From the IMG/VR virus record IMGVR_UViG_3300008262_000013: a stretch of DNA of 64,000 nucleotides. One strand, 5' to 3'. The position numbers and the translations under genes are program-made. The notes beneath the pieces are model-generated. The model was not told the DNA's origin. It worked only from the letters and a program-made list of their open reading frames with translations, and ran no database searches. Source of the DNA: a virus (taxonomy: Duplodnaviria > Caudoviricetes). Every line of letters begins with the position of its first letter. Positions within the stretch are counted from its first letter, which is position 1. Positions 3 to 54,107 of this stretch are shown here, piece after piece.

Positions 3-1022
3 GCGGAGAGTTTACAAGCTTATGCATGTGCTACGAGACAATTCATTGGTAAACCACTAACCGATGTTACAGAAATAACTAATAAAACAATTGGTGATGC
101 TGAGTGTGATAGACCATTGGATAAATGTTTAAAAGGTTTAAATGCAAATTGGTATCACAGTGTCATAACTACAGCCAATGAAATTTTTAAAGATGTCAAA
201 CCTCAAGGTAAATATATGTTTTACCGTGGTGGAAAATTAGTCGGCGACATTTATAAAGAGTTCGGAAAATTTAGAAAAGAAAGTGGTTTATCTGGAGATG
301 ATAAATGGAATCCTGCTGACATTTGGATGGCAAAAAAAGGATTTAAATTTGAAAAAGACTGGTCAACACTTAGAGACTATAATCGATATATCTATGATGA
401 ATTTGCACATAAGAATCTAATTGGAATTTCTTTGAAGTTGGTACCAAAAGGTGATGCACATTCTAAAATATTTAATGATGGTAAACCTCTCATCGCAGAA
501 TGGAATGGGTACAAAATTAGTGATGATATGTTTAGTTCAAAAGACATATATCTGAAATATAAATCAGAAGGTAAAGAAGGTGAAATACAACTTAGAAATT
601 TCTCAAGTCGTCCGGTTACAAGTTCTTGGCAAGGAGAAATTAAAGGTAAAACAGCAGCAGGTGGAAAAATTGGTGGTGGCATTGTAATGACTGCTGCATT
701 AGAATCTGGGATACCAAGAACTAAACTAATGATACCTTCGTCTTTCGGTACTCATATTGAAAAACCTAATGATAAGATTCTAAAAGAATTTGCTACAATG
801 TTTAAAGAATTAAGTAAAAGTAAAAAATCAGTAAAAGATTTAATGACTGAAGCTATGATTTGTCAAAAGAAAGATAAGACTTGGTGGATGTCAAAATTTT
901 TAGGCATACATTATGTTTATACCATTATAAACGAAAAAAAAGAAAATGAAGTTGTTAAATGGTTGTTTGAATATGGATCATCAGCAACTAAGAACAGTAG
1001 TATTTTTATAAAGTATAGCTAA
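3..1022 (+). CDS. 5'-truncated conserved T4-like phage protein, possible PD-(D/E)xK nuclease fold
   Basis: Frame is open from base 3, so the gene starts upstream of the window. WNPADIW...LIGISLK resembles a PD..(D/E/S)xK signature. Confidence 0.5.
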   Translation, partial: AESLQAYACATRQFIGKPLTDVTEITNKTIGDAECDRPLDKCLKGLNANWYHSVITTANEIFKDVKPQGKYMFYRGGKLVGDIYKEFGKFRKESGLSGDDKWNPADIWMAKKGFKFEKDWSTLRDYNRYIYDEFAHKNLIGISLKLVPKGDAHSKIFNDGKPLIAEWNGYKISDDMFSSKDIYLKYKSEGKEGEIQLRNFSSRPVTSSWQGEIKGKTAAGGKIGGGIVMTAALESGIPRTKLMIPSSFGTHIEKPNDKILKEFATMFKELSKSKKSVKDLMTEAMICQKKDKTWWMSKFLGIHYVYTIINEKKENEVVKWLFEYGSSATKNSSIFIKYS

Positions 1023-2254
1023 TGAAATTCTCAGAATATTTAACCGAATCTAAGAAAGAAGGAGCTAACCTTCACTTAGAACATTTAGAAGATAATGTAT
1101 TAAACAGAGGCATAAAAGGTGCAAGAGAGTCAATTGATTTTCTCCGTGCATTGCGTGATATGTTAGCAGGTCATTCTCAATCCAAAGTGAATGTTACTAC
1201 AAAATGGGATGGTGCTCCTGCTGTAATTTGTGGTACTAATCCAGAAAATGGAAAGTTTTTCGTCGGCACAAAATCAGTTTTTAATAAAGAAGGTAAATTA
1301 AATTATACTGATGATGATATTGATAAGAATCATCCTGGTGGAGGACTAAATGAAAAATTAAAAACAGCACTTGCTTTTCTTTCAAAGTTAGAAATTAAAG
1401 GTATATTACAAGGTGACATGTTATTCACTAAAGGTGATATACAAAAACAAAGTATAGACGGCGAATCATATATTACATTTCAGCCTAATACAATTGTTTA
1501 TGCTGTGCCTACTGATTCTGTTATGGCTTCAAAAATGATGGCAGCTCAAATGGGTATCGTGTTTCATACATCGTATTCTGGTAGAACCATGGATACATTG
1601 AAGGCCTCTTTTAATATTGATATTGGTAATTTAAAACAAACTAAAGATGTTTGGTTTAGAGATGCTTCATTTGTTGATGCCTCTGGTACTGCAACATTTA
1701 CTGAAACAGAAACTAAGTTAATTACGAATGTTCTATCTCAAGCAGGCAGAGTATTTCAAACAATCAATCCTCTAGTTCTAAATAGAATATCTTCTTCAGA
1801 TATTTTAAATACACAAATTAAAACATTTAATAATACGAAAGTCAGAGCAGGTCAAAAAATAACTAACACTCGAACACATGTTACAGAATTGATTCGTTGG
1901 GTAGAAGATAGGTTGAATAAAGAAATTCTTGCTGCAAAGAAAGAAGATACGAGGAAAAAAAGAATCGCAGAAAAATCTGAACTGATTAGATTTTACAGAA
2001 GTAGTGCATCTCAACTTGCGGCAATTTTTGACTTAATGAACTTAATTGTAGACGCCAAGATAATGATAGTCAGAAAATTAGAATCTATAAAATCTTCAGT
2101 AAGTACTTTTGTAAATACTGAAGATGGTTTCAAAGTTACTGGTCCAGAAGGTTTTGTTGCAGTAGATAGATTAAGTGGTGGTGCATTGAAACTTATCGAT
2201 AGAATGGAATTTTCGCAACAAAACTTTAATGCCGCAAAGAATTGGAGTAAATAA
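1022..2254 (+). CDS. Ligase-like covalent nucleotidyltransferase with capsid-targeting-like N-terminus
   Basis: Motif I TTKWDG, III-like LQGDMLF, IV PEGFVA, V-like LKLID; HLEHLED near the N-terminus; starts MKFSEYLTES. Confidence 0.55.
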   Translation: MKFSEYLTESKKEGANLHLEHLEDNVLNRGIKGARESIDFLRALRDMLAGHSQSKVNVTTKWDGAPAVICGTNPENGKFFVGTKSVFNKEGKLNYTDDDIDKNHPGGGLNEKLKTALAFLSKLEIKGILQGDMLFTKGDIQKQSIDGESYITFQPNTIVYAVPTDSVMASKMMAAQMGIVFHTSYSGRTMDTLKASFNIDIGNLKQTKDVWFRDASFVDASGTATFTETETKLITNVLSQAGRVFQTINPLVLNRISSSDILNTQIKTFNNTKVRAGQKITNTRTHVTELIRWVEDRLNKEILAAKKEDTRKKRIAEKSELIRFYRSSASQLAAIFDLMNLIVDAKIMIVRKLESIKSSVSTFVNTEDGFKVTGPEGFVAVDRLSGGALKLIDRMEFSQQNFNAAKNWSK

Positions 2255-2662: not shown

Positions 2663-3052
2663 ATGGCTTATTCTAGTCAATTGATGGATCACTATGAGAA
2701 TCCACGAAACGTAGGAAAGTTAGATACAAGTGACACGACTGTTGGTACAGGATTAGTTGGTGCGCCAGCTTGCGGTGACGTTTTAAAGTTGCAAATTAAA
2801 GTTGATGACGGAGTAATTACTGATGCGAAATTTAAGACGTATGGTTGTGGCTCGGCGATTGCATCGTCGTCGCTTGTCACCGAGTGGGTTAAAGGCAAGA
2901 CAATTGATGAAGCGATGGCGATCAAGAATACCCAAATTGCTGAGGAACTTGCATTACCACCAGTCAAAATTCATTGTTCGATTCTGGCGGAAGATGCAAT
3001 CAAAGCAGCTATAAAAGATTATAAAGATAAAAATTTAGCAAAGGCAGCTTGA
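2663..3052 (+). CDS. iscU: Fe-S cluster scaffold protein IscU
   Basis: HYENPRNVG, GAPACGDV, FKTYGCGSAIASSS, LPPVKIHCSILAEDA with all three Cys ligands. Confidence 0.95.
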   Translation: MAYSSQLMDHYENPRNVGKLDTSDTTVGTGLVGAPACGDVLKLQIKVDDGVITDAKFKTYGCGSAIASSSLVTEWVKGKTIDEAMAIKNTQIAEELALPPVKIHCSILAEDAIKAAIKDYKDKNLAKAA

Positions 3053-3927
3053 TGTTAAAACAAGTAGATGGTAAGTGGGCTTTAGTTTCTAAAAAAACAC
3101 AGAGACCACTTGCTTATTACAGAGGTGAGGGTAAACCTTCTGACGAATGGGTTAGGAAACAAGAATCAAGAATTCAAATATTCAAGTCGATGAATGAACA
3201 AAAAGATTCTACGAAGTCTGGTTCTGGTTTAACTATATTCGATATTGATGACACACTCTTTCATACAACTGCTAAGATTGCTGTGAAGAAAGATGGTAAA
3301 GTTGTTCGTGAATTAAATAATCAAGAATTTAATACCTATCAATTAAAGAAAGGTGAAGAATTTGATTATCGCCAATTTCGTGATGCAAAAAAGTTTAAAG
3401 AAGAATCAAAGCCTATTGCCAAAATGTTTGCTAAGGCAAAAGCAATACTCCGTAATGTTGTAAATAAACCGGGTAGTCAGATGATTATTTTGACTGCACG
3501 TAATGATTTTGATGACAAAGAAACATTTTTGGATACATTCAGGCAATATGGTTTAGATATAAACAAGGTAAGAGTCGAACGTGCAGGCAAATTAACAAAG
3601 TTGTCGCCAGCGCACGCTAAGTATGTTATAATATATAATTATTTAAAACAAGGTAAATTTTCCCACGTTCGTTTATTCGATGATAGTATGGCAAACCTAA
3701 AAGAATTTTTACGTTTGAAAAAAGATTTTACAGACGTAACATTTGAGGCATATTTTGCGAAACCAGATGGTTCAGTGGAAAGAATCGGTGGTATAAATGA
3801 AGAACAAGAGTTTGTTTCTAAGGCTGGCGCAGGAGAATGGGGTAGACCAGAACTAACACGTAAATATATAGAAGATACACCAGGACAAAAGGTTCAGAGG
3901 TTTAAGAAATACATAAAGAATATATAA
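3049..3927 (+). CDS. HAD-family phosphatase (Pnkp 3'-phosphatase-like) with short terminal modules
   Basis: FDIDDTL, ILTAR and LFDDS HAD motifs. Short flanking modules are separated by KSMNEQ and GINEEQE. Confidence 0.7.
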   Translation: MMLKQVDGKWALVSKKTQRPLAYYRGEGKPSDEWVRKQESRIQIFKSMNEQKDSTKSGSGLTIFDIDDTLFHTTAKIAVKKDGKVVRELNNQEFNTYQLKKGEEFDYRQFRDAKKFKEESKPIAKMFAKAKAILRNVVNKPGSQMIILTARNDFDDKETFLDTFRQYGLDINKVRVERAGKLTKLSPAHAKYVIIYNYLKQGKFSHVRLFDDSMANLKEFLRLKKDFTDVTFEAYFAKPDGSVERIGGINEEQEFVSKAGAGEWGRPELTRKYIEDTPGQKVQRFKKYIKNI

Positions 3928-3945
3928 TTTTTTTGGAGAATGTGA

Positions 3946-4779
3946 ATGAGAGATTTGATTATAGGATGTTCCACCAACTACGATTGGTCCAAATTAAAAT
4001 ATTGGATCAACTCTATCAATAAATCCGGATTTCAGGGTGATAAGGTCATGATTCTTATGAATTGTGACAAAGATACAGTAAATAAAGTTGTTGAATCCGG
4101 ATTCAATGTTATAGGTTTCAAAAAAGACGAAGAAGGTAATTTAACATATTCCTCTAATATGCCAGTGCATACTGAAAGATTTTTGCACATATACAACTAT
4201 CTAAAAGATAAGGACTATCGATACGTAATTACTACTGATGTTAAAGATGTAGTCTTTCAAAAAAATCCTATTGAATTTTTGGAAAAGGAATGTGTCAATA
4301 AAAATTTACTTTTTGCTTCGGAAAGTATTCGATACAAAGATGAACCATGGGGTGATCAAAACTTAAAAGAAACTTTTGGTCCTTACATTTATGAACAGTT
4401 TAAAAATAATGAGATATTCAATGTGGGTGTTTTGGCTGGACATGGATATGCTATTCGTGATTTAGCACTAAACATTTTTGTTTCTTGTTTGAATCGTCCA
4501 ATTCCTATTTGTGACCAATCAACCTTCAACTTTATGATTAGTCAAAATCCCTACACTTCATTGAGTAAGTATACTCGTTCTGAAGAAGGCTGGGCAGCAC
4601 AGTTAGGTACAACAGGAGATCCATCAAAAGCATTACAATTTGATCCTGTTTTATTGGAAGCCAAACCTAAACTACAAGATGGAATTGTAACGACATCTGA
4701 AGGAAAACAATTTTATATTGTACACCAGTACGATAGAGTACCTGAAATGAAAAATACATTGGAGAAAAAATATGAGTGA
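3946..4779 (+). CDS. Glycosyltransferase-like protein
   Basis: ITTDVKDVVFQ DxxD-type motif, N-G-like NVGVLAG, terminal HQYDR; first gene of a sugar-modification cluster. Confidence 0.55.
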   Translation: MRDLIIGCSTNYDWSKLKYWINSINKSGFQGDKVMILMNCDKDTVNKVVESGFNVIGFKKDEEGNLTYSSNMPVHTERFLHIYNYLKDKDYRYVITTDVKDVVFQKNPIEFLEKECVNKNLLFASESIRYKDEPWGDQNLKETFGPYIYEQFKNNEIFNVGVLAGHGYAIRDLALNIFVSCLNRPIPICDQSTFNFMISQNPYTSLSKYTRSEEGWAAQLGTTGDPSKALQFDPVLLEAKPKLQDGIVTTSEGKQFYIVHQYDRVPEMKNTLEKKYE

Positions 4780-9222: not shown

Positions 9223-9999
9223 ATGATTAATGAATTTGAATATGAAAAATTACAAAATGAGTTTAAAAATGGACAACCATTTTCTCATTGTGTTATAGAT
9301 AATTTTTTTGATGAAGAAACGGCTTTAAAATTGTCAGAAGAATTTCCCGACTATAATGATAACGTTTGGTCTATCTATGATAATCCAATAGAAAATAAAA
9401 GAACTAATTCAAACTGGAATTTGTTTCCAAAAGAAACATATCAATTCTTTTCTTTAATGAATGGTGATGAGTTTATAGAAAAAGTAAAAAAAATTACAGG
9501 TATTGATGATTTGGCTGCCGATTATGGATTACACGGCGGCGGGTGGCACATGCATGGTCGCAACGGAAAATTGAATTTACATAAAGATTATTCTATTCAT
9601 CCAAAACTTGAAATGGAAAGAAGAATTAATATTATCATTTACATGACACCAATTTGGCAAGAATCTTGGGGTGGAGGGTTGGAATTATGGTCAAATGATG
9701 AGGAAAAAAATTTACCAAAAGAATGTATTAAAAAAATTGATAATAAATTTAACCGTGCTGTAATTTTCGACACTACGCAGAATTCGTGGCATGGCCTTCC
9801 TGATGCGATTAATTGTCCTCCAGGAATGTACAGAAAATCTTTAGCAATATACTATGTCTCTCCTCCAAGAAAAGAAGCTGAAGTACATGACCGAGCACTT
9901 TTTGCACCTTACAAAGATCAGGTTAGTGACCCTAAAATTTTAGAATTGATTAAAAAAAGATCAAGTTCTAAAACCTCTGGTGAAGTTTATAGGACATAA
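9223..9999 (+). CDS. 2OG-Fe(II) oxygenase
   Basis: LNLHKDY (HxD), GGGLELW, SWHG, YRKS. Confidence 0.85.
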   Translation: MINEFEYEKLQNEFKNGQPFSHCVIDNFFDEETALKLSEEFPDYNDNVWSIYDNPIENKRTNSNWNLFPKETYQFFSLMNGDEFIEKVKKITGIDDLAADYGLHGGGWHMHGRNGKLNLHKDYSIHPKLEMERRINIIIYMTPIWQESWGGGLELWSNDEEKNLPKECIKKIDNKFNRAVIFDTTQNSWHGLPDAINCPPGMYRKSLAIYYVSPPRKEAEVHDRALFAPYKDQVSDPKILELIKKRSSSKTSGEVYRT

Positions 10000-10019
10000 A
10001 AACCTCAGGTAAGAGAAAT

Positions 10020-10027
10020 TATAAATA
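10020..10027 (+). promoter_or_regulatory. T4-type late promoter TATAAATA
   Basis: Exact consensus in the intergenic gap, 40 nt upstream of the 907-aa ORF. Confidence 0.75.
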
Positions 10028-10067
10028 CAAGATAAAATTAGACTAACTGCTGTAGAGGCGGAGAAAT

Positions 10068-12791
10068 ATGAAATTTAAAGACTTTCTATTAGAACAGAAA
10101 GAAAAACACGCTGTCATGGCTTTCGGCCGTATGAATCCGATTACGAACGGCCATGAAAAAGTAGTCAAGGAAGTCAAAAAAATTGCTAAGCAATTTGACG
10201 CATCCCACCACATCGTACTGTCACATTCTCAAGATCCGAAGAAAAATCCTCTTACAGTACAGCAAAAAATGAAACACGCTAAGCGTGCATTTCCCGATAC
10301 AAAATTTGTAGCAGCATCCAGTGAATCTCCCACATTTTTCGAATATGCCGAAAAGTTATACAAACAAGGTGTAACTCATTTTCACATGGTTGCTGGTTCT
10401 GATCGAGCTCTCGAATATTTAAAATTACTCAAAAAATATAATGGTACACATAAGGGTGCTAGATTTAATTTTAAATACATGGGTGTAGAATCTGCCGGTG
10501 AACGTGACCCAGATGCAGAAGGCGCAGAGGGTATCTCCGCATCAAAGATGCGTGATGCTGCCGCAAAGGGAGATTTCAAAACTTTTAAAAAAGGCGCACC
10601 ATCAAAAATGTCAGTTGATCAGGTAAAAGACATGTATAATGATGTGCGTAAAGGTATGAACATTAAAGAAAGCATCAATGAAGAATTCGAAGAACTTCTC
10701 GTTGAAGGTGTACATGATCAAAGTATTTTCAAAGCAGTATTTTTAGCAGGCGGTCCAGGTTCAGGTAAAGATTATGTGTTAAGTAATACATTAGATGGCC
10801 ATGGATTAACAGAAATTAATTCTGATAAAGCTTTAGAGTTCTTAATGGATAAAAAAGGACTTGATAAGAGAATGCCTGAGAATGAAACTGAAGCGAGAGA
10901 TATCGTTCGAGGCAAAGCTAAGAGTGTAACTGAATTACGTCAACGTTTAGCATTACAGGGAAGAAACGGTTTAATCATCAATGGTACAGGCGATGATCCT
11001 AAAAAGGTTGCAAAAATTAAATCAAAATTAGAAGAATTGGGTTACGACACCTCAATGATTCTTGTCAATACAAATGATGAAGTGTCTGCACAAAGAAACA
11101 TTGAACGTGGTCAAAGAGGTGGTAGAACTGTACCAGAAACAATTCGTAAAGAAAAATGGGACAATGTTCAAAACGCACGTACAGAATACGCAAAGATATT
11201 TTCTGATCGTTATATGGAGTTTGACAACTCGGAAGATTTGCGACAAGCGCCACCTGATGTGGTTAAAGAAAAGAAAATGGAAATGTTGCAACTCTTTAAG
11301 AATGTTAAAGAGTTCGTTGCACAACCTCCACAATCTCCTGCTGCTCAAGAATGGGTAGCAAATGAACTTCAACAAAAAGATACATTAAAGCCGGACACAA
11401 AAGGTGCAGAAAAGATTCCACCAAGTGGATCTAGTGCTGCTGATGAAGCTAGAAAGATGGGATTACAATATTATGGATTTGGCCGTTACGGTAAAAATGG
11501 TAAAACTACACACCGTTCAGTGCATGACAAATTAGTACAAGTAACAAACAAAGAACCAGAACAACCAAAATTACCAACACCAGGTTCTTCACCAGTTGAT
11601 AATAAATCTAAAGTCAAAAAAGAATCTATTGATGACGAATTTGAAAATCTTATTTCAGAAGATTTGCGTAAGTGGTTTAGTAAAACTGATCCAGAAGGTG
11701 GTTGGAAAAGAATTAATAGTAAAGGTGAAGCAATTGGTCCTTGCGCTCGTGAACCTGGTGAACCAAAACCAAAATGTATGTCAAACGAAAAACGTGCTTC
11801 ATTGTCCAAGAAAGAACGTGCATCTGCTGTCGCAGCAAAACGTAAACATGATCCTGTTGCAGACAGAGGTGGCAAAGGTGGTAAACCTGTGAATGTTTCT
11901 AATTTTGGAAAAGGAAAACTATCTGAAGCTGTAACAGTTTCGGTTACTGGTGATACAGTTGATGAAGTAAAAGACTTCTTTACTACATTCAATAATAATG
12001 TAACCCATGAAGAATCATATGCTTTGTCTGATTCAAAGACTGATGCTATAACATTAGGTAAATTTATGCAACCCTTTGGTGAGAAAATGGAAAATACCAT
12101 GATCACTAATGAGATGATGCAAGATATGCTTGATGAAAGTCAACATAATTTATTGAAAGATAAACAAGGTAGAGTTAGAGTTTTCATGTTGCGCTCTGTT
12201 GCAGCAAAAGAAGCACATACGAAACAAGGTATCGTTTTGAAACATAAAAATGGTTATGTAATTAAACTAAAAGAGGAGATTGAAAATGTTGAAGTTTATA
12301 AAGGAACTATTCGGAATTGGATTGAAGAATCCAAACAAGCACGGGTTAGAGGGAGCATCGACAGCTCCAAACCAGGACTTCTCACAGAGAGTAGAACAAT
12401 ACTCAGCACCAGTGGAAGCACCAGTTCAGGAACAAACAGTTCAAGAGAAACCAAAGACGCAAAAGAAGGCACCAGCATCCAAGAAGCCATCGCCAAAGAA
12501 ACAAGAAACAAAATCACCCTCTCAGAAATCAGGCAGAGGCAGAAAACCTGGTCAGAAGAACAAATCAACGAAATAGATCGTGGTATTGAACCTGGTCTAT
12601 CAATGGCTGGTGCAGGTGAAAGTATTGGTAGAGATATGGGAGAAAAAATTAAAAAAAGATCCCATAAAGTTACTACAGTAGAAATGACTGGTGATGAAAC
12701 AACAGCTTCTATTGGTGATCAAAAAGAAGGTGAGTTAAAAAGAAAAGGTATTAATTTAACGACATTCAAAGCAAAAAGGCCGATAGGATGA
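10068..12791 (+). CDS. Multidomain protein: HxGH nucleotidyltransferase + P-loop kinase + small modules; putative packaged polyprotein
   Basis: GRMNPITNGH, VAGSDR, ISASKMR; LAGGPGSGK, INGTG, RNIER; Glu-rich linkers; starts MKFKDFLLEQ. Confidence 0.75.
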   Translation: MKFKDFLLEQKEKHAVMAFGRMNPITNGHEKVVKEVKKIAKQFDASHHIVLSHSQDPKKNPLTVQQKMKHAKRAFPDTKFVAASSESPTFFEYAEKLYKQGVTHFHMVAGSDRALEYLKLLKKYNGTHKGARFNFKYMGVESAGERDPDAEGAEGISASKMRDAAAKGDFKTFKKGAPSKMSVDQVKDMYNDVRKGMNIKESINEEFEELLVEGVHDQSIFKAVFLAGGPGSGKDYVLSNTLDGHGLTEINSDKALEFLMDKKGLDKRMPENETEARDIVRGKAKSVTELRQRLALQGRNGLIINGTGDDPKKVAKIKSKLEELGYDTSMILVNTNDEVSAQRNIERGQRGGRTVPETIRKEKWDNVQNARTEYAKIFSDRYMEFDNSEDLRQAPPDVVKEKKMEMLQLFKNVKEFVAQPPQSPAAQEWVANELQQKDTLKPDTKGAEKIPPSGSSAADEARKMGLQYYGFGRYGKNGKTTHRSVHDKLVQVTNKEPEQPKLPTPGSSPVDNKSKVKKESIDDEFENLISEDLRKWFSKTDPEGGWKRINSKGEAIGPCAREPGEPKPKCMSNEKRASLSKKERASAVAAKRKHDPVADRGGKGGKPVNVSNFGKGKLSEAVTVSVTGDTVDEVKDFFTTFNNNVTHEESYALSDSKTDAITLGKFMQPFGEKMENTMITNEMMQDMLDESQHNLLKDKQGRVRVFMLRSVAAKEAHTKQGIVLKHKNGYVIKLKEEIENVEVYKGTIRNWIEESKQARVRGSIDSSKPGLLTESRTILSTSGSTSSGTNSSRETKDAKEGTSIQEAIAKETRNKITLSEIRQRQKTWSEEQINEIDRGIEPGLSMAGAGESIGRDMGEKIKKRSHKVTTVEMTGDETTASIGDQKEGELKRKGINLTTFKAKRPIG
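12286..12576 (+). CDS. Nested same-strand ORF (96 aa, MLKFIKELFGIG..., Lys/Pro-rich tail)
   Basis: GAGGAG 7 nt before the ATG; stop-free in a different frame inside the 907-aa gene. Confidence 0.55.
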   Translation: MLKFIKELFGIGLKNPNKHGLEGASTAPNQDFSQRVEQYSAPVEAPVQEQTVQEKPKTQKKAPASKKPSPKKQETKSPSQKSGRGRKPGQKNKSTK

Positions 12792-13372
12792 AAACATTTA
12801 AAGAATTAATGTTAGAGAGATGTTGGCCAGGTCATAAACCTGTACCTGGTAAAAAACCTTATTCACCAGGTTCTTGTGTAAAAGAAGAACAACTTGATGA
12901 AATGCCTGGTGCTAATATGGACACTAGAGCAGTACATAAGCATCTTAGAAAATCTGGTTGGGAATTAACTAGAACATCCGGTGGTCACGATGTGTTTACT
13001 CATCCAGAAGCTAAGCATCATATTCCTGTTCCTCGTCACAAGCAATTAAAGGCACCATTAGTTCGTGGTATTCTAAAAGCTGCCAAAATAAATGAAGATT
13101 TGGAAGAATCTGCCGCATGGCAACGTAAAGAAGGAAAAAATCCTGAAGGTGGATTAAATCGTAAAGGTATTGCTTCTTATCGCCGTGAAAATCCTGGTTC
13201 AAAATTGTCAATGGCTGTGACTACACCACCATCAAAATTAAAACCAGGAAGTAAAGCAGCGAATCGCCGTAAATCATTTTGCGCTCGTATGGGTGGTATG
13301 CCAGGTCCTATGAAGGATGAAAAAGGTCGTCCAACAAGAAAAGCATTATCTTTGAGAAAGTGGAATTGCTAA
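12788..13372 (+). CDS. Three-module protein containing a HicA-like RNase domain
   Basis: Starts MKTFKELMLE; CWPG..C module; HicA-like LRKSGWELTRTSGGHDVFTH..IPVPRH; C-terminal AWQRKEGK..SFCARM..KWNC module. Confidence 0.75.
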   Translation: MKTFKELMLERCWPGHKPVPGKKPYSPGSCVKEEQLDEMPGANMDTRAVHKHLRKSGWELTRTSGGHDVFTHPEAKHHIPVPRHKQLKAPLVRGILKAAKINEDLEESAAWQRKEGKNPEGGLNRKGIASYRRENPGSKLSMAVTTPPSKLKPGSKAANRRKSFCARMGGMPGPMKDEKGRPTRKALSLRKWNC

Positions 13373-14683
13373 GTGGCACAATTTAGAACCGACTTACACA
13401 AGATAGATTCAGGACAAGTATTCACTCGTTATGAAGTGAATATGATGTCTGATCGTCTTACACCATCGGGCACAATGACAGATGCGTTTGGTCGCCTTCG
13501 TCTATCACAACCATTTACTCTTTTTGATAGTTCGCACCGTTTTACTGACAACGGACTGTGGTCAACATCAAATACAGAAGGAAATAGTTCATATGCTTTT
13601 GTAAACAATCAAAGTATGATTGCGATGACTGTGGGAACTACAGCAAATGCCGAAGTCATTCGTGAGACAACAAGAGTGTTTTCATATCAACCAGGTAAGT
13701 CTTTGTTGATGATGTCGTCATTTGCTATGGAGACACCTAAAGCAAATGTTCGTCAGAGAGTTGGTTATTATGGTGCTGAGAATGGTATCTATCTTGAGAA
13801 TGATGGAACAGCAAACTATTTTGTGCTGAGAAGTAATACATCAGGGACAATTACAGAAACAAAAGTTACACAAACAGATTGGAATATAGACAAGTTTGTC
13901 GGCACGGGTTATTCATCTCAAAGTGGTGGTGCTGAACATACTAACGGCATCGATGTAAGTAAAACTAATATTCTTTGGATGGATATTGAATGGTTGGGTG
14001 TTGGTGATGTTCGTTGTGGATTTGTGGTTGATGGTAAAATGGTTCCTGCTCATATATTTCATAATGATAATAAGAATTTGGTTCCTTATATGACAACGGC
14101 ATCTTTACCGTTGCGTTATGAAATCAAGAACACAGGTATTACAACAAGTAATTCTACATTAAAACAGATTTGTTCAACCGTTATATCTGAAGGTGGATAT
14201 GAGTTGCTTGGATCGCAGCAAGCCGTAGGCACACCAGTTACTAGCCCAATTGATTTGGCCGTTGCTGGAACATATTATAATCTCATTTCTTTGAGATTGA
14301 AATCGGATAGATTAGATGCGATTGCCATTATTACTGCACTATCTTTATTAGCATTAACTAACAACTCATATTATAACTGGCAACTCAGGGCGGGTGGTAC
14401 AACAACAGGTGGAACATGGGTAAGTGCAGGAGATAATTCGGCTGTTGAATATAAATTAGATGCCGCAACAATTTCAGGTGGAAGAATATTAGCATCGGGC
14501 TTTACAACTTCTACTACACAAAGTTCTATACCAGTGGATATTCTTAGAGAAGCACTATTCAAATTTCAATTAGAAAGAAATGGATTGACCAATACACCCT
14601 TCGAACTCACATTATGTGTGGCAGCATCAGTTAATGGTTCTGATATATACGCATCGATGGATTGGGAAGAAGTCACAAGATAA
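13373..14683 (+). CDS. Putative virion structural protein
   Basis: DAFGRLR start and beta-rich Thr/Ser/Gly composition like T4-like structural proteins; GTG start. Confidence 0.5.
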   Translation: MAQFRTDLHKIDSGQVFTRYEVNMMSDRLTPSGTMTDAFGRLRLSQPFTLFDSSHRFTDNGLWSTSNTEGNSSYAFVNNQSMIAMTVGTTANAEVIRETTRVFSYQPGKSLLMMSSFAMETPKANVRQRVGYYGAENGIYLENDGTANYFVLRSNTSGTITETKVTQTDWNIDKFVGTGYSSQSGGAEHTNGIDVSKTNILWMDIEWLGVGDVRCGFVVDGKMVPAHIFHNDNKNLVPYMTTASLPLRYEIKNTGITTSNSTLKQICSTVISEGGYELLGSQQAVGTPVTSPIDLAVAGTYYNLISLRLKSDRLDAIAIITALSLLALTNNSYYNWQLRAGGTTTGGTWVSAGDNSAVEYKLDAATISGGRILASGFTTSTTQSSIPVDILREALFKFQLERNGLTNTPFELTLCVAASVNGSDIYASMDWEEVTR

Positions 14684-35351: not shown

Positions 35352-35419
35352 GTTTAAGGATCATGATTTCATAGATAAGTGTGATATTGTGCAAAGGCAC
35401 AATTCTTATAGGAGAAATC

Positions 35420-36442
35420 ATGAGAAAGTTACTTTTATCTTTATTGTTATTTACAGGAGTCGCATCCGCAGCAGAATTAACTGGCGCTGGTGCGACTTTT
35501 CCATTTCCAATCTATGCTAAGTGGGCAGAAGCATATAAAGCATCCACTGGCATTGGTCTGAATTATCAATCAATCGGTTCTGGTGGTGGTATCAAACAAA
35601 TCAAAGCAAAAACAGTTGACTTTGGTGCAAGTGATATGCCATTGAAGCCTGAAGAATTAGACAAAGAAGGTCTAGTGCAATTTCCAGCAGTAATTGGCGG
35701 TGTAGTACCAGTATTCAATCTTGACGGTGTAGCAGCAGGTCAATTAAAATTAACACCAGAAGTTATTGCAAACATTCATCTTGGTAAAATCACAAAGTGG
35801 AACGATAAAGCAATTGTTGATTTGAATCCTGGCGTCAATCTACCAGCATTAGCAATCACAGTTGTTCATCGTGCAGATGGTTCAGGCACTACATTTATTT
35901 GGACAAACTTTTTAGGTAAAGCAAACGCTGATTTTGCAAAAACTGTTGGCGAAGGCACAGCAGTAAAATGGCCAGTTGGTGTAGGTGGTAAAGGTAATGA
36001 AGGTGTTGCTGTTCAAGTACAAAGAATCAAAGGTGCATTTGGCTATGTAGAATATGCATATGCAAAAAGAAATAAAATTGCACACGCACAATTAAAAAAT
36101 CGTGATGGTGTTTTTGTACAACCAAGTGACGATTCATTCAAAGCCGCAGCAGCAAACGCAGATTGGGCTAATGCACCAGGAATGTATTTGTTGCTCACAT
36201 GGCAAACAGGTAAAGAAGCATGGCCAGCAACAGGCGCAAGTTTCATTCTCATGCACAAACAACAAGCAGATAGTTTGACAGGTCGTGCAGTTTTGAAATT
36301 CTTTGATTGGAGTTGGAAGAATGGTGCCAAGATGAGTGAAGAACTAGAATATGTTCATTTACCACAATCAGTTATTAAATTAAATCAGGACAATTGGAAA
36401 AAAGACTTAAAAGGTCCTGACAACAACCCAATTTGGAAATAA
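35420..36442 (+). CDS. pstS: Phosphate-binding protein PstS
   Basis: Signal peptide, GAGATFP, YQSIGSGGG, DFGASD, HRADGSGTT, GKGNEGV; AGGAGA before ATG 35420. Confidence 0.95.
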   Translation: MRKLLLSLLLFTGVASAAELTGAGATFPFPIYAKWAEAYKASTGIGLNYQSIGSGGGIKQIKAKTVDFGASDMPLKPEELDKEGLVQFPAVIGGVVPVFNLDGVAAGQLKLTPEVIANIHLGKITKWNDKAIVDLNPGVNLPALAITVVHRADGSGTTFIWTNFLGKANADFAKTVGEGTAVKWPVGVGGKGNEGVAVQVQRIKGAFGYVEYAYAKRNKIAHAQLKNRDGVFVQPSDDSFKAAAANADWANAPGMYLLLTWQTGKEAWPATGASFILMHKQQADSLTGRAVLKFFDWSWKNGAKMSEELEYVHLPQSVIKLNQDNWKKDLKGPDNNPIWK

Positions 36443-36451
36443 GGATAAATT

Positions 36452-37858
36452 ATGAAACTATTTAAAAAATTATCTATCGTAGTTGCACTTGCAGCAGTAA
36501 TTCCTGCATATGCTGATGAGTATAAAGATACATTGAATATTCTAAGAGAGAAGAATATAATCACTCAAAAAGAATATGAATCAAAACTCAATGCATATGA
36601 AGAAAAAGAAGAAAACAAAAAGTTTGCAGAACAAAGAATCGACAAAGATGTTAGTGATTCGGTCAAATACAGACAAGCAAGAGCAAACGATGGTTCAGTC
36701 ACAGAAAATGGAATCGGACTCAAAAGCAAAGATGGAAACAATACGGCACAGTTTACAGGTCGAATTCATATGGACTATCGCCAATACACACCAGATTATG
36801 GTGTCGGCCAAACCACGGATTCGTATCAAAACTTAGCCGAAGTTCGCCGTGCAAGATTTGGTGTTCGTGGACAATTTGCAAAAGACTTCAAATATCAATT
36901 GTTAGCAAACTTTGGTGCAAGTGATGGCTTTAGTTCTACATCATCAACAGCAGATGAGATGTGGGTAAACTATGCAGCAAATCCAGAAATGCAATTTCAA
37001 TTTGGCTTATTCAAGATGCCATTTAGTCTTGAACAAATGACAAGTTCAAACAATCTAGATTTTATGGAACGTAGTTTGATTGGTCAGAATGATACTGAAT
37101 TTATTCCTGCAAAAGAAACTGGTTTCATGTTACATGGTGTGCCAAAACCTGGCCTTACATATGCTATAGCAGCAAGTAGAGGCAAATCCAATAAGAGCGC
37201 AGAGTTCGATGGACTTGATTATATTGGTCGTGTAACAACTAATATTGCTGAACTAACAGGCAGCAAAGCATACACTGCACACTTGGGTGCAGCATACAGC
37301 ACAGGTGAAATTAAAAGTGGCGTTGCACCAGCCAGTGGTAGAACAGAATCTCGTATGCAGTCTGGTTGGTTTACAGGTTCCGCATTGAGTGGTGCTACTA
37401 CAAGAACACGCCAAGGATTAGAAGCAGCGTTTGCATATAACGGTTTCAAAGTTCAAGGCGAACAGTTCAATTTTAAATATGATGCTGCAACAGGTAGTGA
37501 CCAAGAAATCAAAGGGTACTATGTACAAGCAGTTTATAATTTAACTGGCGAATCACATGCATACAAAGATGGTGCGTTTGGTTGGATTAAACCAAATAAT
37601 CCAATCGACAAAGGTGGTCGTGGTGCGTGGCAGGTTGGTGTACGTATGAGTGAGTTTGATGCAAGTGATGTATCCGTTGCAACAGGCAAGTCAAATCGTG
37701 CTACTGCTATGACATACGGTCTAACTTGGTTTTGCACTGACAATCTACGTTTCATGCTCAACTACGTAGATACAAAGTTTGATGCATTAGTTGGTAGTTC
37801 TGGTAGTCGTGTAAATGGTGAAAAAGCAATTATGTTTAGAAGTCAATTAAGTTTCTAA
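36452..37858 (+). CDS. Phosphate-selective porin O/P family
   Basis: Signal peptide, GRIHMD, RRARFGVRG, G.FKMPFSLE..TSSN..FMERS, C-terminal RSQLSF; directly after pstS. Confidence 0.85.
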   Translation: MKLFKKLSIVVALAAVIPAYADEYKDTLNILREKNIITQKEYESKLNAYEEKEENKKFAEQRIDKDVSDSVKYRQARANDGSVTENGIGLKSKDGNNTAQFTGRIHMDYRQYTPDYGVGQTTDSYQNLAEVRRARFGVRGQFAKDFKYQLLANFGASDGFSSTSSTADEMWVNYAANPEMQFQFGLFKMPFSLEQMTSSNNLDFMERSLIGQNDTEFIPAKETGFMLHGVPKPGLTYAIAASRGKSNKSAEFDGLDYIGRVTTNIAELTGSKAYTAHLGAAYSTGEIKSGVAPASGRTESRMQSGWFTGSALSGATTRTRQGLEAAFAYNGFKVQGEQFNFKYDAATGSDQEIKGYYVQAVYNLTGESHAYKDGAFGWIKPNNPIDKGGRGAWQVGVRMSEFDASDVSVATGKSNRATAMTYGLTWFCTDNLRFMLNYVDTKFDALVGSSGSRVNGEKAIMFRSQLSF

Positions 37859-51444: not shown

Positions 51445-52212
51445 ATGGCAAGAAAATCTTCTGTAGACCTGCAAATTGTTGAAAGTGAACATTCAACAAA
51501 AAACTCAAAAATAAAAACAGGAACACATAATTTGAGAATTAAAATAGATGATTTAAAAACATTTGACCCATTGACAGAAAATCAAAAAATATTTTTTGAT
51601 GCATATAAAAGGCAAGATTATTTTATAGCACTGCATGGTGTAGCAGGAACAGGAAAAACATTTTGTGCATTATATAAAGCCTTAGAAGAAGTTTTAGATA
51701 GAAATAATCCTTTTCAGAAAATCATTGTTGTTCGTTCGGCTGTACAGTCTAGAGAAATTGGCCATTTACCGGGTGATGTACATGAGAAGATGGAAATCTA
51801 TCAGCAACCATATAGACAAATTTGTGAAACATTATTCGGACGCAGAGATGCATGGGATAGATTAGAAGAACAGGGGCATATTGAATTTATTTCCACCTCA
51901 TTTATCCGGGGAATGTCCTTCGATGACGCAATCATTATCGTTGATGAATGTCAGAATTTATCATTCGAGGAAATTGATACCGTTATGACCCGAGTTGGAT
52001 ATCGTTCAAAAATTATTTGGTGTGGTGATTATCGTCAAACTGATTTGAACAAAAAGAAAAATGATGTTTCTGGTATTTTGAAATTCTTTGACATTGCATA
52101 CCATATGGCAGCATTTACAAGAGTTGAATTTACAGTTGAAGATATTGTGAGAAGTAGTTTAGTAAAAGATTACATTATCGCAAAGTTGAAAGTAGAAGAT
52201 TTGAATAACTAA
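51445..52212 (+). CDS. phoH: PhoH family ATPase
   Basis: GVAGTGKT, IGHLPG, IRGMSF, VDECQN, CGD..QTD, DIVRS. Confidence 0.93.
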   Translation: MARKSSVDLQIVESEHSTKNSKIKTGTHNLRIKIDDLKTFDPLTENQKIFFDAYKRQDYFIALHGVAGTGKTFCALYKALEEVLDRNNPFQKIIVVRSAVQSREIGHLPGDVHEKMEIYQQPYRQICETLFGRRDAWDRLEEQGHIEFISTSFIRGMSFDDAIIIVDECQNLSFEEIDTVMTRVGYRSKIIWCGDYRQTDLNKKKNDVSGILKFFDIAYHMAAFTRVEFTVEDIVRSSLVKDYIIAKLKVEDLNN

Positions 52213-52226
52213 CACAGGAGTATATT

Positions 52227-52658
52227 ATGATTTATTTTGATGATGAAAGAGATTATAGTAAAATCGTTGAAGAATGGATTCGTGATTTCATTGCAACAAT
52301 GGACGAGGGTGTGCTTACAGCAGGCAATGATTCGGGTGAGGCACCTTTTGGTGTAAAAATCATTTTCGATGGCTATGGGTATGATGAAGAAAATGATTTG
52401 GAAAATAATGATACAAACACATTGTCGTTTGCTGTATTCATTCACAAAAATTCATTGAATGAGGAATTTCCACCACATGAACAAACGCCTTGGGCTTTGA
52501 TTCATCGACCAAAAGAAGAAGTTTGCATTTGGGCTTGGTATGATGTCAATGCTGATTTAGTTGATATCATACCATTTGAAGATAATAATTCTACAGAGTT
52601 GGATCCAAAATTTGTCAGCAATTTAATTCATGAAATTTATATGAGGGAGTTACAATGA
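52227..52658 (+). CDS. Strongly acidic hypothetical protein
   Basis: AGGAG Shine-Dalgarno; about 30 Asp/Glu versus under 10 Lys/Arg. Confidence 0.6.
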   Translation: MIYFDDERDYSKIVEEWIRDFIATMDEGVLTAGNDSGEAPFGVKIIFDGYGYDEENDLENNDTNTLSFAVFIHKNSLNEEFPPHEQTPWALIHRPKEEVCIWAWYDVNADLVDIIPFEDNNSTELDPKFVSNLIHEIYMRELQ

Positions 52659-53158
52659 GTTTAGTACAATATGCAGAAAGTGAATTAGACCGTATTGGTA
52701 TGACCGATGATGATGACATGAATGGAGCAATGCGTAGACATTTGCTACACATGATACATGAATTTTCAGAAGAAGGACATTCTGGATTCTCTGCGAGTTA
52801 TGCATTACAGTGTTTAGAAAAATTACTTCGTTTTAAACCACTATCACCATTAACAGGTGAAGATGATGAATGGACTGATGTTGCTGAAATCAGTGGAAAA
52901 CCACACTATCAAAACAAAAGATGTGGTTCTGTATTCAAAGATGGTAAAGACGGTGAAGCATATGATATCGATGGTAAAGTATTTTGGGAATGGTATAAAG
53001 ATGATGATGGAAATGTATATAAATCACATTACACCGCTTTCGAAAGTCGTGTACCAGTAAAATTTCCTTATATTGTGCCTGATGAGCCAATCTATGAGTG
53101 GCGTGTTTCATCGCATGATCCACAACAAGCCGAACAAAATGAAGAAGGTTTTGTGTAA
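52655..53158 (+). CDS. Conserved phage hypothetical protein
   Basis: GHSGFSA..PLSPLTGEDDEW..QNKRC pattern. Confidence 0.6.
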   Translation: MSLVQYAESELDRIGMTDDDDMNGAMRRHLLHMIHEFSEEGHSGFSASYALQCLEKLLRFKPLSPLTGEDDEWTDVAEISGKPHYQNKRCGSVFKDGKDGEAYDIDGKVFWEWYKDDDGNVYKSHYTAFESRVPVKFPYIVPDEPIYEWRVSSHDPQQAEQNEEGFV

Positions 53159-53397
53159 TGAAATTTTGGACTATCGTTTATCCCGATGAGACAGAATCAG
53201 GTCAAGAATACACACATTGGGAAACATTATCTGATCAAGATATTTTAGAGCAATACTGGTCTTACTGGTATGTTCGTATGATTGAAAATAATCAACCTAT
53301 TGAGAAACTAACATCCGAACAATGTATTGAAGATTGGTGTGTCATACATTGGGCAGAGCGAAACTATTGGCGTGAGATGAAGGATTGCATAACATGA
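53158..53397 (+). CDS. Trp-rich hypothetical protein
   Basis: ORF track. Confidence 0.55.
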   Translation: MKFWTIVYPDETESGQEYTHWETLSDQDILEQYWSYWYVRMIENNQPIEKLTSEQCIEDWCVIHWAERNYWREMKDCIT

Positions 53398-54107
53398 GAA
53401 ACAATTTTTTTGAAATTACTTGGTCAGACTATAAATTTTGGCACATGTATTTGATATGGCCAACAGAGGGTGATGAAAACAAATATTTAAAAATTTCATT
53501 TGGTTTCTGGAAATTCTTTGCAAGTATAGGATTGTGGCCAACAAAAGGTGTTGGAGATTTTACTTCAATTATGGGACCAAAATATGGTTTCTCATATAGT
53601 GAAGGTGTATTTTTTATCTACAAAGGATTGGACAAATACACTGCAATTGATATGCCATGGCGTTGGCAAATTGTTCGCCATGACCTTTTATTGCCTGATG
53701 GTAGTGTATATCAAACCAATTTGTGGGATTATTCTGGCGAAAAAATTGGTGAACATTACCATTGGCATGAAATGTTAAATGGTTGGAAGGATGAAAATCT
53801 AAAAAGAGGCCTTTTAGAAAAATGTGCTAGAACGGTAGAATTGGATCACTATACAAAAGATGGTCGCCGTCAACAGGCAATAATCACATTAACGGGTGAA
53901 GAAAGAGAATGGCGTTGGTTGTGGTTTACATGGTTGCCATTATTCAATAAAGTTGAACGAGTTGTTTCTTGTGAATCAAATGTCGAATTGGGCAAGAAAG
54001 CAGGAACATGGAAAGGCGGCATGATGGGTTGGAGTTGCGATTGGGCAATAAATGAAAGTATGGAAATGGCATTTAGAAGATGGTATGATAAGTGGGACGG
54101 CAATTAA
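53394..54107 (+). CDS. Trp-rich hypothetical protein
   Basis: ORF track; ATG at 53394. Confidence 0.55.
   Translation: MRNNFFEITWSDYKFWHMYLIWPTEGDENKYLKISFGFWKFFASIGLWPTKGVGDFTSIMGPKYGFSYSEGVFFIYKGLDKYTAIDMPWRWQIVRHDLLLPDGSVYQTNLWDYSGEKIGEHYHWHEMLNGWKDENLKRGLLEKCARTVELDHYTKDGRRQQAIITLTGEEREWRWLWFTWLPLFNKVERVVSCESNVELGKKAGTWKGGMMGWSCDWAINESMEMAFRRWYDKWDGN

Follow-up and report, generated by a model that had tools for sequence, protein, structure and literature searches.

The 64,000-nucleotide stretch of virus record IMGVR_UViG_3300008262_000013 (Duplodnaviria; Caudoviricetes), hereafter the window, encodes a 194-residue protein in which a domain of the HicA toxin family lies between two acidic linkers. 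The domain stands behind a ten-residue start resembling the capsid-targeting sequence (CTS) of the internal proteins (IPs) of phage T4, and ahead of a very basic DUF6321 module. On balance, we favour the reading that this is a late, leader-tagged head-cargo protein: the prohead protease would cut out its HicA bead, which would then travel with the DNA and serve as a delivered RNase, and the protein would do without an antitoxin since it is made late and encapsidated. HicA would then be an accessory, swappable cargo bead and not half of a toxin-antitoxin pair. Directly supported are the identity of the domain, its fold, its conserved residues, purifying selection, the mobility of the module, the motif that flanks it, the absence of hicB nearby and the detection in virions of a family member lacking HicA. 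The parts of the open reading frame (ORF) are as follows.

12788-13372, plus strand: 194-residue ORF (P0001), composed of leader, Cys motif, linker, HicA, linker and DUF6321; isoelectric point (pI) 10.2, 21.7 kDa
12788-12817, plus strand: CTS-like leader MKTFKELMLE, residues 1-10, assigned from its likeness to T4 leaders and the consensus of homologues
12818-12901, plus strand: Cys motif RCWPGHKPVPGKKPYSPGSCVKE and acidic linker ending in L36-D37-E38, residues 11-38, shared with homologues
12902-13096, plus strand: HicA module, residues 39-103 (MPGANMD...KINE), with the Pfam match at 47-101 and the folded core at 44-100
12980-12988, plus strand: loop GGT GGT CAC, encoding G65-G66-H67, aligned to Gly22-Ser23-His24 of B. 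pseudomallei HicA
13091-13108, plus strand: acidic linker NEDLEE, residues 102-107, with candidate cleavage sites I-N-E103 and L-E-E107
13109-13369, plus strand: DUF6321, residues 108-194, a very basic C-terminal module (pI 11.3) assigned by Pfam and ending in LRKWNC

A first-pass annotation, made from the letters of the window, had pointed to a HicA-like segment at 12917-13090, bordered by KEEQLDE and NEDLEE. These positions were correct and correspond to M44-I101 of the ORF, the two borders being residues 32-38 and 102-107. The segment itself is real: besides adopting a HicA fold in a structural model, it matches Pfam HicA_toxin (PF07927) over residues 47-101, or profile positions 2-58 of 58, with an E-value of 4.1e-12 and 46.4 bits (cut-off 27), and PHROG 353, annotated as 'toxin', with an E-value of 2.6e-14. 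By tblastn, the window holds a single HicA copy.

The AlphaFold2 model of the ORF was built from 19 homologues. At residues 44-100 it contains an α-β-β-β-α unit with a predicted local distance difference test (pLDDT) score of 71-81; helices span residues 46-55 and 89-98, strands 59-64, 67-71 and 78-82. This is the fold of HicA, similar to a double-stranded RNA-binding domain, and the structural check that the annotation had suggested thus came out in favour of HicA: without exception, the seven highest-ranking Foldseek matches from the PDB are HicA proteins, the best being that of B. pseudomallei (6g26_F; TM-score 0.87, root-mean-square deviation 1.0 Å, 57 columns). Other HicA matches include T. 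thermophilus 1whz, Y. pestis HicA3 and the HicA proteins of S. pneumoniae and E. coli. In sequence, the module shares no more than 22-31% identity with HicA proteins of known structure. The model shows disorder at residues 1-41 and 103-107, with a pLDDT below 50 for residues 11-38 and 103-107, and the predicted TM-score of the whole protein is 0.32; the domains of the ORF are therefore modelled as beads on a string rather than as a packed unit. A role of the Cys motif or of DUF6321 as an inhibitor in cis found no support: the beads are separate in the model, and HicA occurs elsewhere without either of them.

The residues expected of an active toxin are in place. In a PDB sequence search, G65-G66-H67 aligns with G22-S23-A24 of 4c26, the H24A mutant of B. 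pseudomallei HicA, whose toxicity requires Gly22 and His24 (Butt et al. 2014, PMC3969222). Across 19 homologues that combine HicA with DUF6321 (57-96% identity), R47, G57, G65, H67, H72, P82, R83 and H84 are invariant, and H67 is retained in at least 90% of 77 polyproteins. A comparison of the window with four IMG/VR relatives indicates purifying selection on the module, non-synonymous diversity (pN) being 0.09-0.27 against a saturated synonymous value (pS) of 0.67-0.82. Judged by sequence and model together, the segment is a true HicA domain that selection has maintained, and it is probably a catalytic endoribonuclease.

The module belongs to a family much larger than the window. We ran an exhaustive phmmer search with residues 36-108 against 1.84 billion cluster representatives, which returned 221 matches at E ≤ 1e-3 and 96 at E ≤ 1e-10. 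Leaving aside the query's own cluster, we retrieved 95 representatives at the stricter threshold; their median length is 450 residues, and 90 of them reach at least 120. The position of the HicA unit varies from the N-terminus up to residue 763 of 865. Free HicA proteins of the ordinary kind (58-90 residues, median 83) turn up only among the weaker matches. By this search, there is a large clade of HicA whose members lie almost all inside long bead-on-a-string phage proteins. Every one of the 77 polyproteins tested matches Pfam HicA, and a few also carry DUF5824, an ADP-ribosyltransferase exoenzyme domain, Zeta_toxin or SfsA. The single polyprotein with the ADP-ribosyltransferase exoenzyme domain (PF03496, E 2e-13) is reminiscent of packaged T4 Alt.

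Close relatives show the module coming and going. On one related contig (L032), the syntenic DUF6321 protein of 279 residues lacks HicA, and the module instead occupies the middle of a polyprotein encoded two genes further downstream. The same locus of a 139.8-kb contig (L098) encodes a 127-residue protein made of leader, Cys motif and DUF6321, with no HicA within 5 kb on either side of its gene. On a third contig (L096), the 83-residue protein P0220 (2660-2911) consists of the leader MLTFKEFIAE and HicA, and nothing else; its gene lies directly 5' of a 385-residue DUF5824+DUF6321 gene (2993-4150), a split form of the fusion in the window. Because it is present, absent or relocated in these cases, HicA is an accessory bead independent of DUF6321. 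In L032, we also noticed an ORF of 143 residues (3828-4259) inserted between the DUF6321 gene and the polyprotein gene that follows it, rich in Cys/His motifs and by eye similar to HNH endonucleases; such an insertion is consistent with homing-type traffic in the cargo cluster. When 50,697 phage records were searched by tblastn with the HicA module, only a YcfA-family gene of the unrelated Bifidobacterium phage Bbif-1 matched, so no cultured phage in that collection carries the embedded form.

The capsid-targeting-like start that the annotation had perceived also holds: MKTFKELMLE resembles the leaders of the T4 IPs. Its first six residues, MKTFKE, are identical to those of T4 IPI (MKTFKEF), and both IPII and IPIII begin with MKTYQEFIAE (read from NC_000866). 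For IPIII, the first ten residues suffice for packaging (Kuhn and Thomas 2022, PMC9026906); within the T4 CTS, targeting is governed by residues 4 and 7 and processing by residues 8 and 10, and T4-related phages carry other basic proteins with CTS-like starts (PMC9026906). Among 120 homologues of the ORF, the leader consensus, with counts in brackets, is M(120)-K(117)-T/S(89)-F(88)-K(106)-x-F/Y/H(109)-I/L/V/M(114)-x-E(114). At the positions that matter in T4, position 4 is F, Y or L in 118 homologues, and position 7 is F, Y, H or L in 119; 114 homologues have I, L, V or M at position 8, and 114 have E at position 10. The ORF, with F4, L7, M8 and E10, carries a CTS-type leader by this measure. 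Leaders of the MK.F type stand on several late ORFs of the window (1022-2254, and those starting at 10068, 12788 and 16034; plus strand), reading MKFSEYLTE, MKFKDFLLE, MKTFKELMLE and MKKFSDVF.

A second signal lies in the linkers. The T4 head protease gp21 cuts after L/I-X-E (PMC9026906). All five [LIVM]-x-E sites of the ORF (E10, E33, E38, E103 and E107) fall outside both folded domains, and none of the six Glu within these domains belongs to such a site. For the ORF taken alone, this placement is weak evidence (Fisher p ~0.03, computed by hand); across the family it is strong. We counted the 96 representatives whose alignment begins at the first residue of the module, with boundaries taken from phmmer coordinates. 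At the entry to HicA, P1 is Glu in 93 of them and P3 is L, I, V or M in 94; the usual form is ...EEVEQLDE followed by MPGANMDTR.VH. Glu likewise stands just before DUF6321 in 107 of 107 homologues, 95 of which have L, I, V or M at P3. The idea of a discrete module thus gains ground, as the HicA segment is flanked by L/I-x-E sites and the motif is kept across the clade. The predicted products are HicA at 39-103 or 39-107 (65-69 residues, 7.3-7.8 kDa, pI 9.9-10.7) and DUF6321 at 108-194 (9.6 kDa, pI 11.3).

Virion evidence comes from relatives of the C-terminal module. Residues 116-192 match Pfam DUF6321 (PF19846) with an E-value of 3.3e-23 and 82.6 bits (cut-off 28.5), a family that occurs in 531 phage records, mostly T4-like cyanophages. 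A whole-protein Foldseek search gave no PDB fold match for DUF6321, and a protein atlas search with it returned only other DUF6321 clusters. The domain ends the T4-GC119 proteins of cyanomyoviruses, namely PSSM2_123, ACG-2014f _123, Syn9 gp114 and SSM1_115 of S-SM1. The ORF is 41% identical to the ACG-2014f member across both shared modules, and the Cys motif CW..GY..C.VKE is common to the cyanophage T4-GC119 proteins and most homologues. According to Table S8 of Sullivan et al. 2010, T4-GC119 is structural and accounts for 13 peptide counts from purified virions of S-SM1, if the columns of that table follow the order that we infer (PMC3037559). The cytidylyltransferase T4-GC190 was likewise found in S-SM1 virions (PMC3037559). 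In the window, a protein of 907 residues encoded just upstream of the ORF has a cytidylyltransferase-like domain behind a CTS-like leader and may be compared with it.

The setting of the gene is that of a T4-like myophage. The features next to the ORF are these.

10020-10027, plus strand: T4-type late-promoter-like octamer TATAAATA, a sequence motif ~40 nt 5' of the 907-residue ORF
10068-12791, plus strand: 907-residue modular protein with leader MKFKDFLLE, a cytidylyltransferase-like domain, a zeta-toxin-like P-loop kinase and further short modules (Pfam, PHROG)
13373-14683, plus strand: 436-residue gene, homologue of a cyanophage 'virion structural protein' (PHROG 1645, E 5.8e-132)

The 907-residue protein matches Pfam CTP_transf_like (6.9e-6) and Zeta_toxin (2.8e-13), and the PHROG cytidyltransferase (1.5e-60). 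Its TGA stop shares bases with the ATG of the HicA ORF in an ATGA overlap; going by this arrangement, the two ORFs are translationally coupled, and the pair of genes recurs in related contigs. The octamer at 10020 sits within the intergenic gap 9999-10068, and octamers of its type number three per 64 kb, below the shuffle mean of eight. Downstream, the 436-residue protein is 57% identical to its homologue in cyanophage S-RIM8, which also lies 3' of a DUF6321 gene. The identical 194-residue protein is present on 45 metagenome contigs, the longest of 214.8 kb, with constant gene order. The T4-like markers of the window are a gp61-type primase, ThyX, a class I ribonucleotide reductase, PstS, PhoH and baseplate-wedge-like repeat proteins. 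ORFs 14709 and 16034 encode further bead-on-a-string proteins without a Pfam domain. A megablast search of 11 kb of the window against phage records gave no match.

We propose the following course of events for the head-cargo protein. It would be transcribed late, together with the 907-residue gene, as the TATAAATA motif and the ATGA overlap suggest. Its ten-residue leader, by likeness to the T4 CTS, would take it into the prohead core, where a gp21-type protease may cut at E10, E38 and E103 or E107, the sites marked by the conserved motif, and so free the basic HicA and DUF6321 peptides. The fragments might accompany the packaged DNA and pass with it into the next host; more speculatively still, HicA might there cut host RNA early, resulting in shut-off or in a counter to RNA-dependent defence. 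Packaging, cleavage, activity and delivery of the ORF product are all predictions from these features. Synthesis late in a cell due to lyse, followed by enclosure in a capsid, would make an antitoxin unnecessary. The first-pass annotation had supposed that fusion or packaging keeps the domain inert until proteolysis releases it; the late operon of a lytic phage, whose producing cell is doomed anyway, would be a simpler cause of the missing antitoxin.

Several observations weigh against this course. The leader of the ORF has Leu7 and Met8 where T4 has Phe and Ile, and because of Met8 the Glu-10 site reads M-L-E and not L/I-x-E. The homologue detected in S-SM1 virions has neither HicA nor a CTS-like leader (its N-terminus is MPLVNQ...), and the P-SSM2 member also lacks the MK.FK leader. 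DUF6321 occurs in T7-like podoviruses too, standing alone as a 78-residue protein in the Prochlorococcus cyanopodovirus P-GSP1 (L011:3968-4204) and found in pelagiphage podoviruses as well. We know of no T4-type head protease in T7-like podoviruses; given its stand-alone occurrence there, DUF6321 is a general basic phage module and not a marker of gp21 processing. The L/I-x-E motif is short, and acidic linkers would yield it fairly often. No gp21 gene was found in the 64-kb window. Two complete IMG/VR genomes with DUF6321 do have Peptidase_S77, which is also annotated in S-SM1; it was not found in eight of ten related records, most of them fragments and hence uninformative for this phage. Finally, the presence of the HicA-bearing protein in virions and its cleavage are what we infer, and the RNase activity of this divergent HicA clade is a prediction from sequence.

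Four of these points, namely the inferred packaging and cleavage, the stand-alone DUF6321 of podoviruses, the M-L-E site and the leaderless virion homologue, would be explained as well by a cytoplasmic effector, late or early, that is never packaged or cut. The whole fusion would then bind or cut RNA, DUF6321 and the Cys motif would lend it affinity for nucleic acids, and the acidic stretches would be plain linkers. We hold this to be unlikely, for it leaves unexplained why the leader is kept over 120 homologues at exactly the key positions of T4. Glu at P1 and an aliphatic residue or Met at P3 recur in nearly all of the otherwise unrelated polyproteins (93 and 94 of 96), which is hard to ascribe to linker flexibility alone. 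The module is also found in many fusion contexts, as well as alone behind a leader, and a member of the family is present in S-SM1 virions.

If, on the contrary, the protein is packaged, its HicA-fold bead could still be a non-catalytic structural component of the head, a small basic binder of nucleic acid that condenses or escorts the packaged DNA without acting as an RNase. Both the module and the neighbouring beads are very basic; the fold of HicA resembles a dsRNA-binding domain and its surface is positive (PMC3969222), and the T4 IPs are abundant, basic and assumed to contact packaged DNA (PMC9026906). We regard this as quite improbable, since a charge-neutralizing bead needs neither of the toxicity residues, G65 and H67, that are invariant in the 19 homologues, nor the near-constancy of H67 in the 77 polyproteins. 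Moreover, presence or absence of the module between close relatives is what one expects of an accessory weapon, and not of a structural need.

Canonical hicAB genes are, as far as is known, adjacent, and the annotation had reported no HicB in the window. That statement is upheld: HicB families give no match at E < 0.011 among the 69 small ORFs, and none in the larger ORFs scanned by Pfam or PHROGs. HicB PF15919 has no match in four related IMG/VR contigs, which are 14-77% complete fragments and hence weak evidence; there is no HicB gene beside the stand-alone leader-HicA gene P0220, and no HicB is fused in the 77 related polyproteins by Pfam. The search covered the 64-kb window of a ~215-kb genome, so the status of 'orphan' holds for the neighbourhood. 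For want of an adjacent hicB, the gene is not classed with HicAB systems, while its domain is a member of the HicA family.

An ordinary toxin of a toxin-antitoxin pair, with its hicB among the ~150 kb outside the search, therefore seems very unlikely. Phage-borne hicAB pairs are known in temperate phages, and the label 'toxin' given by PHROG 353 to phage HicA proteins agrees with such a role; against it stand all the negative searches for HicB and the embedding of almost all of the 95 nearest relatives in long polyproteins. The same low probability covers a decoy that titrates host HicB: the annotation's idea of a decoy for host HicAB systems is unsupported, the invariance of G65 and H67 fitting catalysis better. 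Readings outside those weighed here we consider barely probable.

Apart from the cargo locus, the window holds two groups of genes that we record. A homologue of Tad3, an inhibitor of type I Thoeris (PF25185, E 1e-42; 52655-53158, plus strand), and one of Acb3, an inhibitor of the cyclic-oligonucleotide-based antiphage signalling system CBASS (PF25187, E 7e-23; 53385-54107, plus strand), are separated by one ORF of 79 codons; they look like a small counter-defence island. A phosphate-acquisition set (35381-37858 and 51445-52212, plus strand) comprises a PstS-like subunit (PHROG 5385), a homologue of phosphate-selective porin O/P (PF07396, E 3e-50) and PhoH. To our knowledge, no porin gene has been described in a cultured cyanophage.

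In a literature search, we found nothing on DUF6321, on embedded HicA or on HicA in connection with a virion or a fusion; automatic annotation by the Joint Genome Institute already labels these proteins HicA-like. HicA is usually studied as half of a toxin-antitoxin pair. Here it recurs without antitoxin in about 100 clusters, nearly all of them long modular proteins. We tentatively extend the proposal to the clade as a whole, giving it somewhat less than even credence: across aquatic T4-like phages, HicA beads may be a widespread class of RNase effectors delivered by the virion, comprising no fewer than 95 clusters at 50% identity. The prohead protease would cut them out of polyproteins and they would be injected together with the DNA, an antitoxin-free weapon kept safe by late timing and by the capsid. 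If so, phages repurpose toxin domains as pre-made, injected effectors, with timing and encapsidation providing safety in place of an antidote, and the head cargo of T4-like phages extends beyond IPI and Alt. It would also supply testable proteins for many uncharacterized DUF6321/T4-GC119 genes of cyanophages and pelagiphages. The grammar of leader, linker and bead could be used for predicting virion cargo in metagenomes.

Among known systems, the polyvalent proteins (Iyer et al. 2017, PMC5512222) share the strategy: unrelated effector domains in one chain, packaged, processed by a protease and delivered at invasion. They differ in that zincin-like metallopeptidases are proposed there, as opposed to a gp21-type serine protease, and the beads here are mostly tiny and basic. 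The ORF has one recognizable enzymatic domain and no metallopeptidase was seen in it; the likeness is thus one of strategy, not of family. HicA goes unmentioned in the survey of polyvalent proteins, which also remarks that such proteins are scarce in cyanobacteria (PMC5512222).

With the HicA toxins of HicAB systems (B. pseudomallei 4c26 and 6g26, E. coli 6hpb), the module shares the Pfam family, the fold, the Gly and His residues, a P-R-H motif and a basic surface. Unlike them, it has no adjacent or fused HicB, sits in a longer protein with an acidic linker on either side and is part of a clade of its own. With the T4-GC119/DUF6321 proteins (PSSM2_123, SSM1_115, Syn9 gp114), the ORF has in common the C-terminal DUF6321, the Cys motif and the string of short basic modules, and as in S-RIM8 it lies next to the structural gene of PHROG 1645. 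The cultured cyanophage members that we checked (ACG-2014f _123, PSSM2_123, SSM1_115, Syn9 gp114 and S-P4), in contrast, are without HicA.

The closest parallel is with IPI, IPII, IPIII and Alt of T4. There is no homology to them past the leader, and the cargo here is an RNase domain of toxin-antitoxin type. The ORF also has several beads, with internal as well as N-terminal sites, and its packaging and processing are deduced from sequence. In common with these T4 proteins, it is a small, basic and apparently late product, with a ten-residue leader of the same pattern and L/I-x-E at its boundaries. The cargo likewise differs from one related phage to another, and the example of T4 Alt demonstrates that enzymes can be among it.

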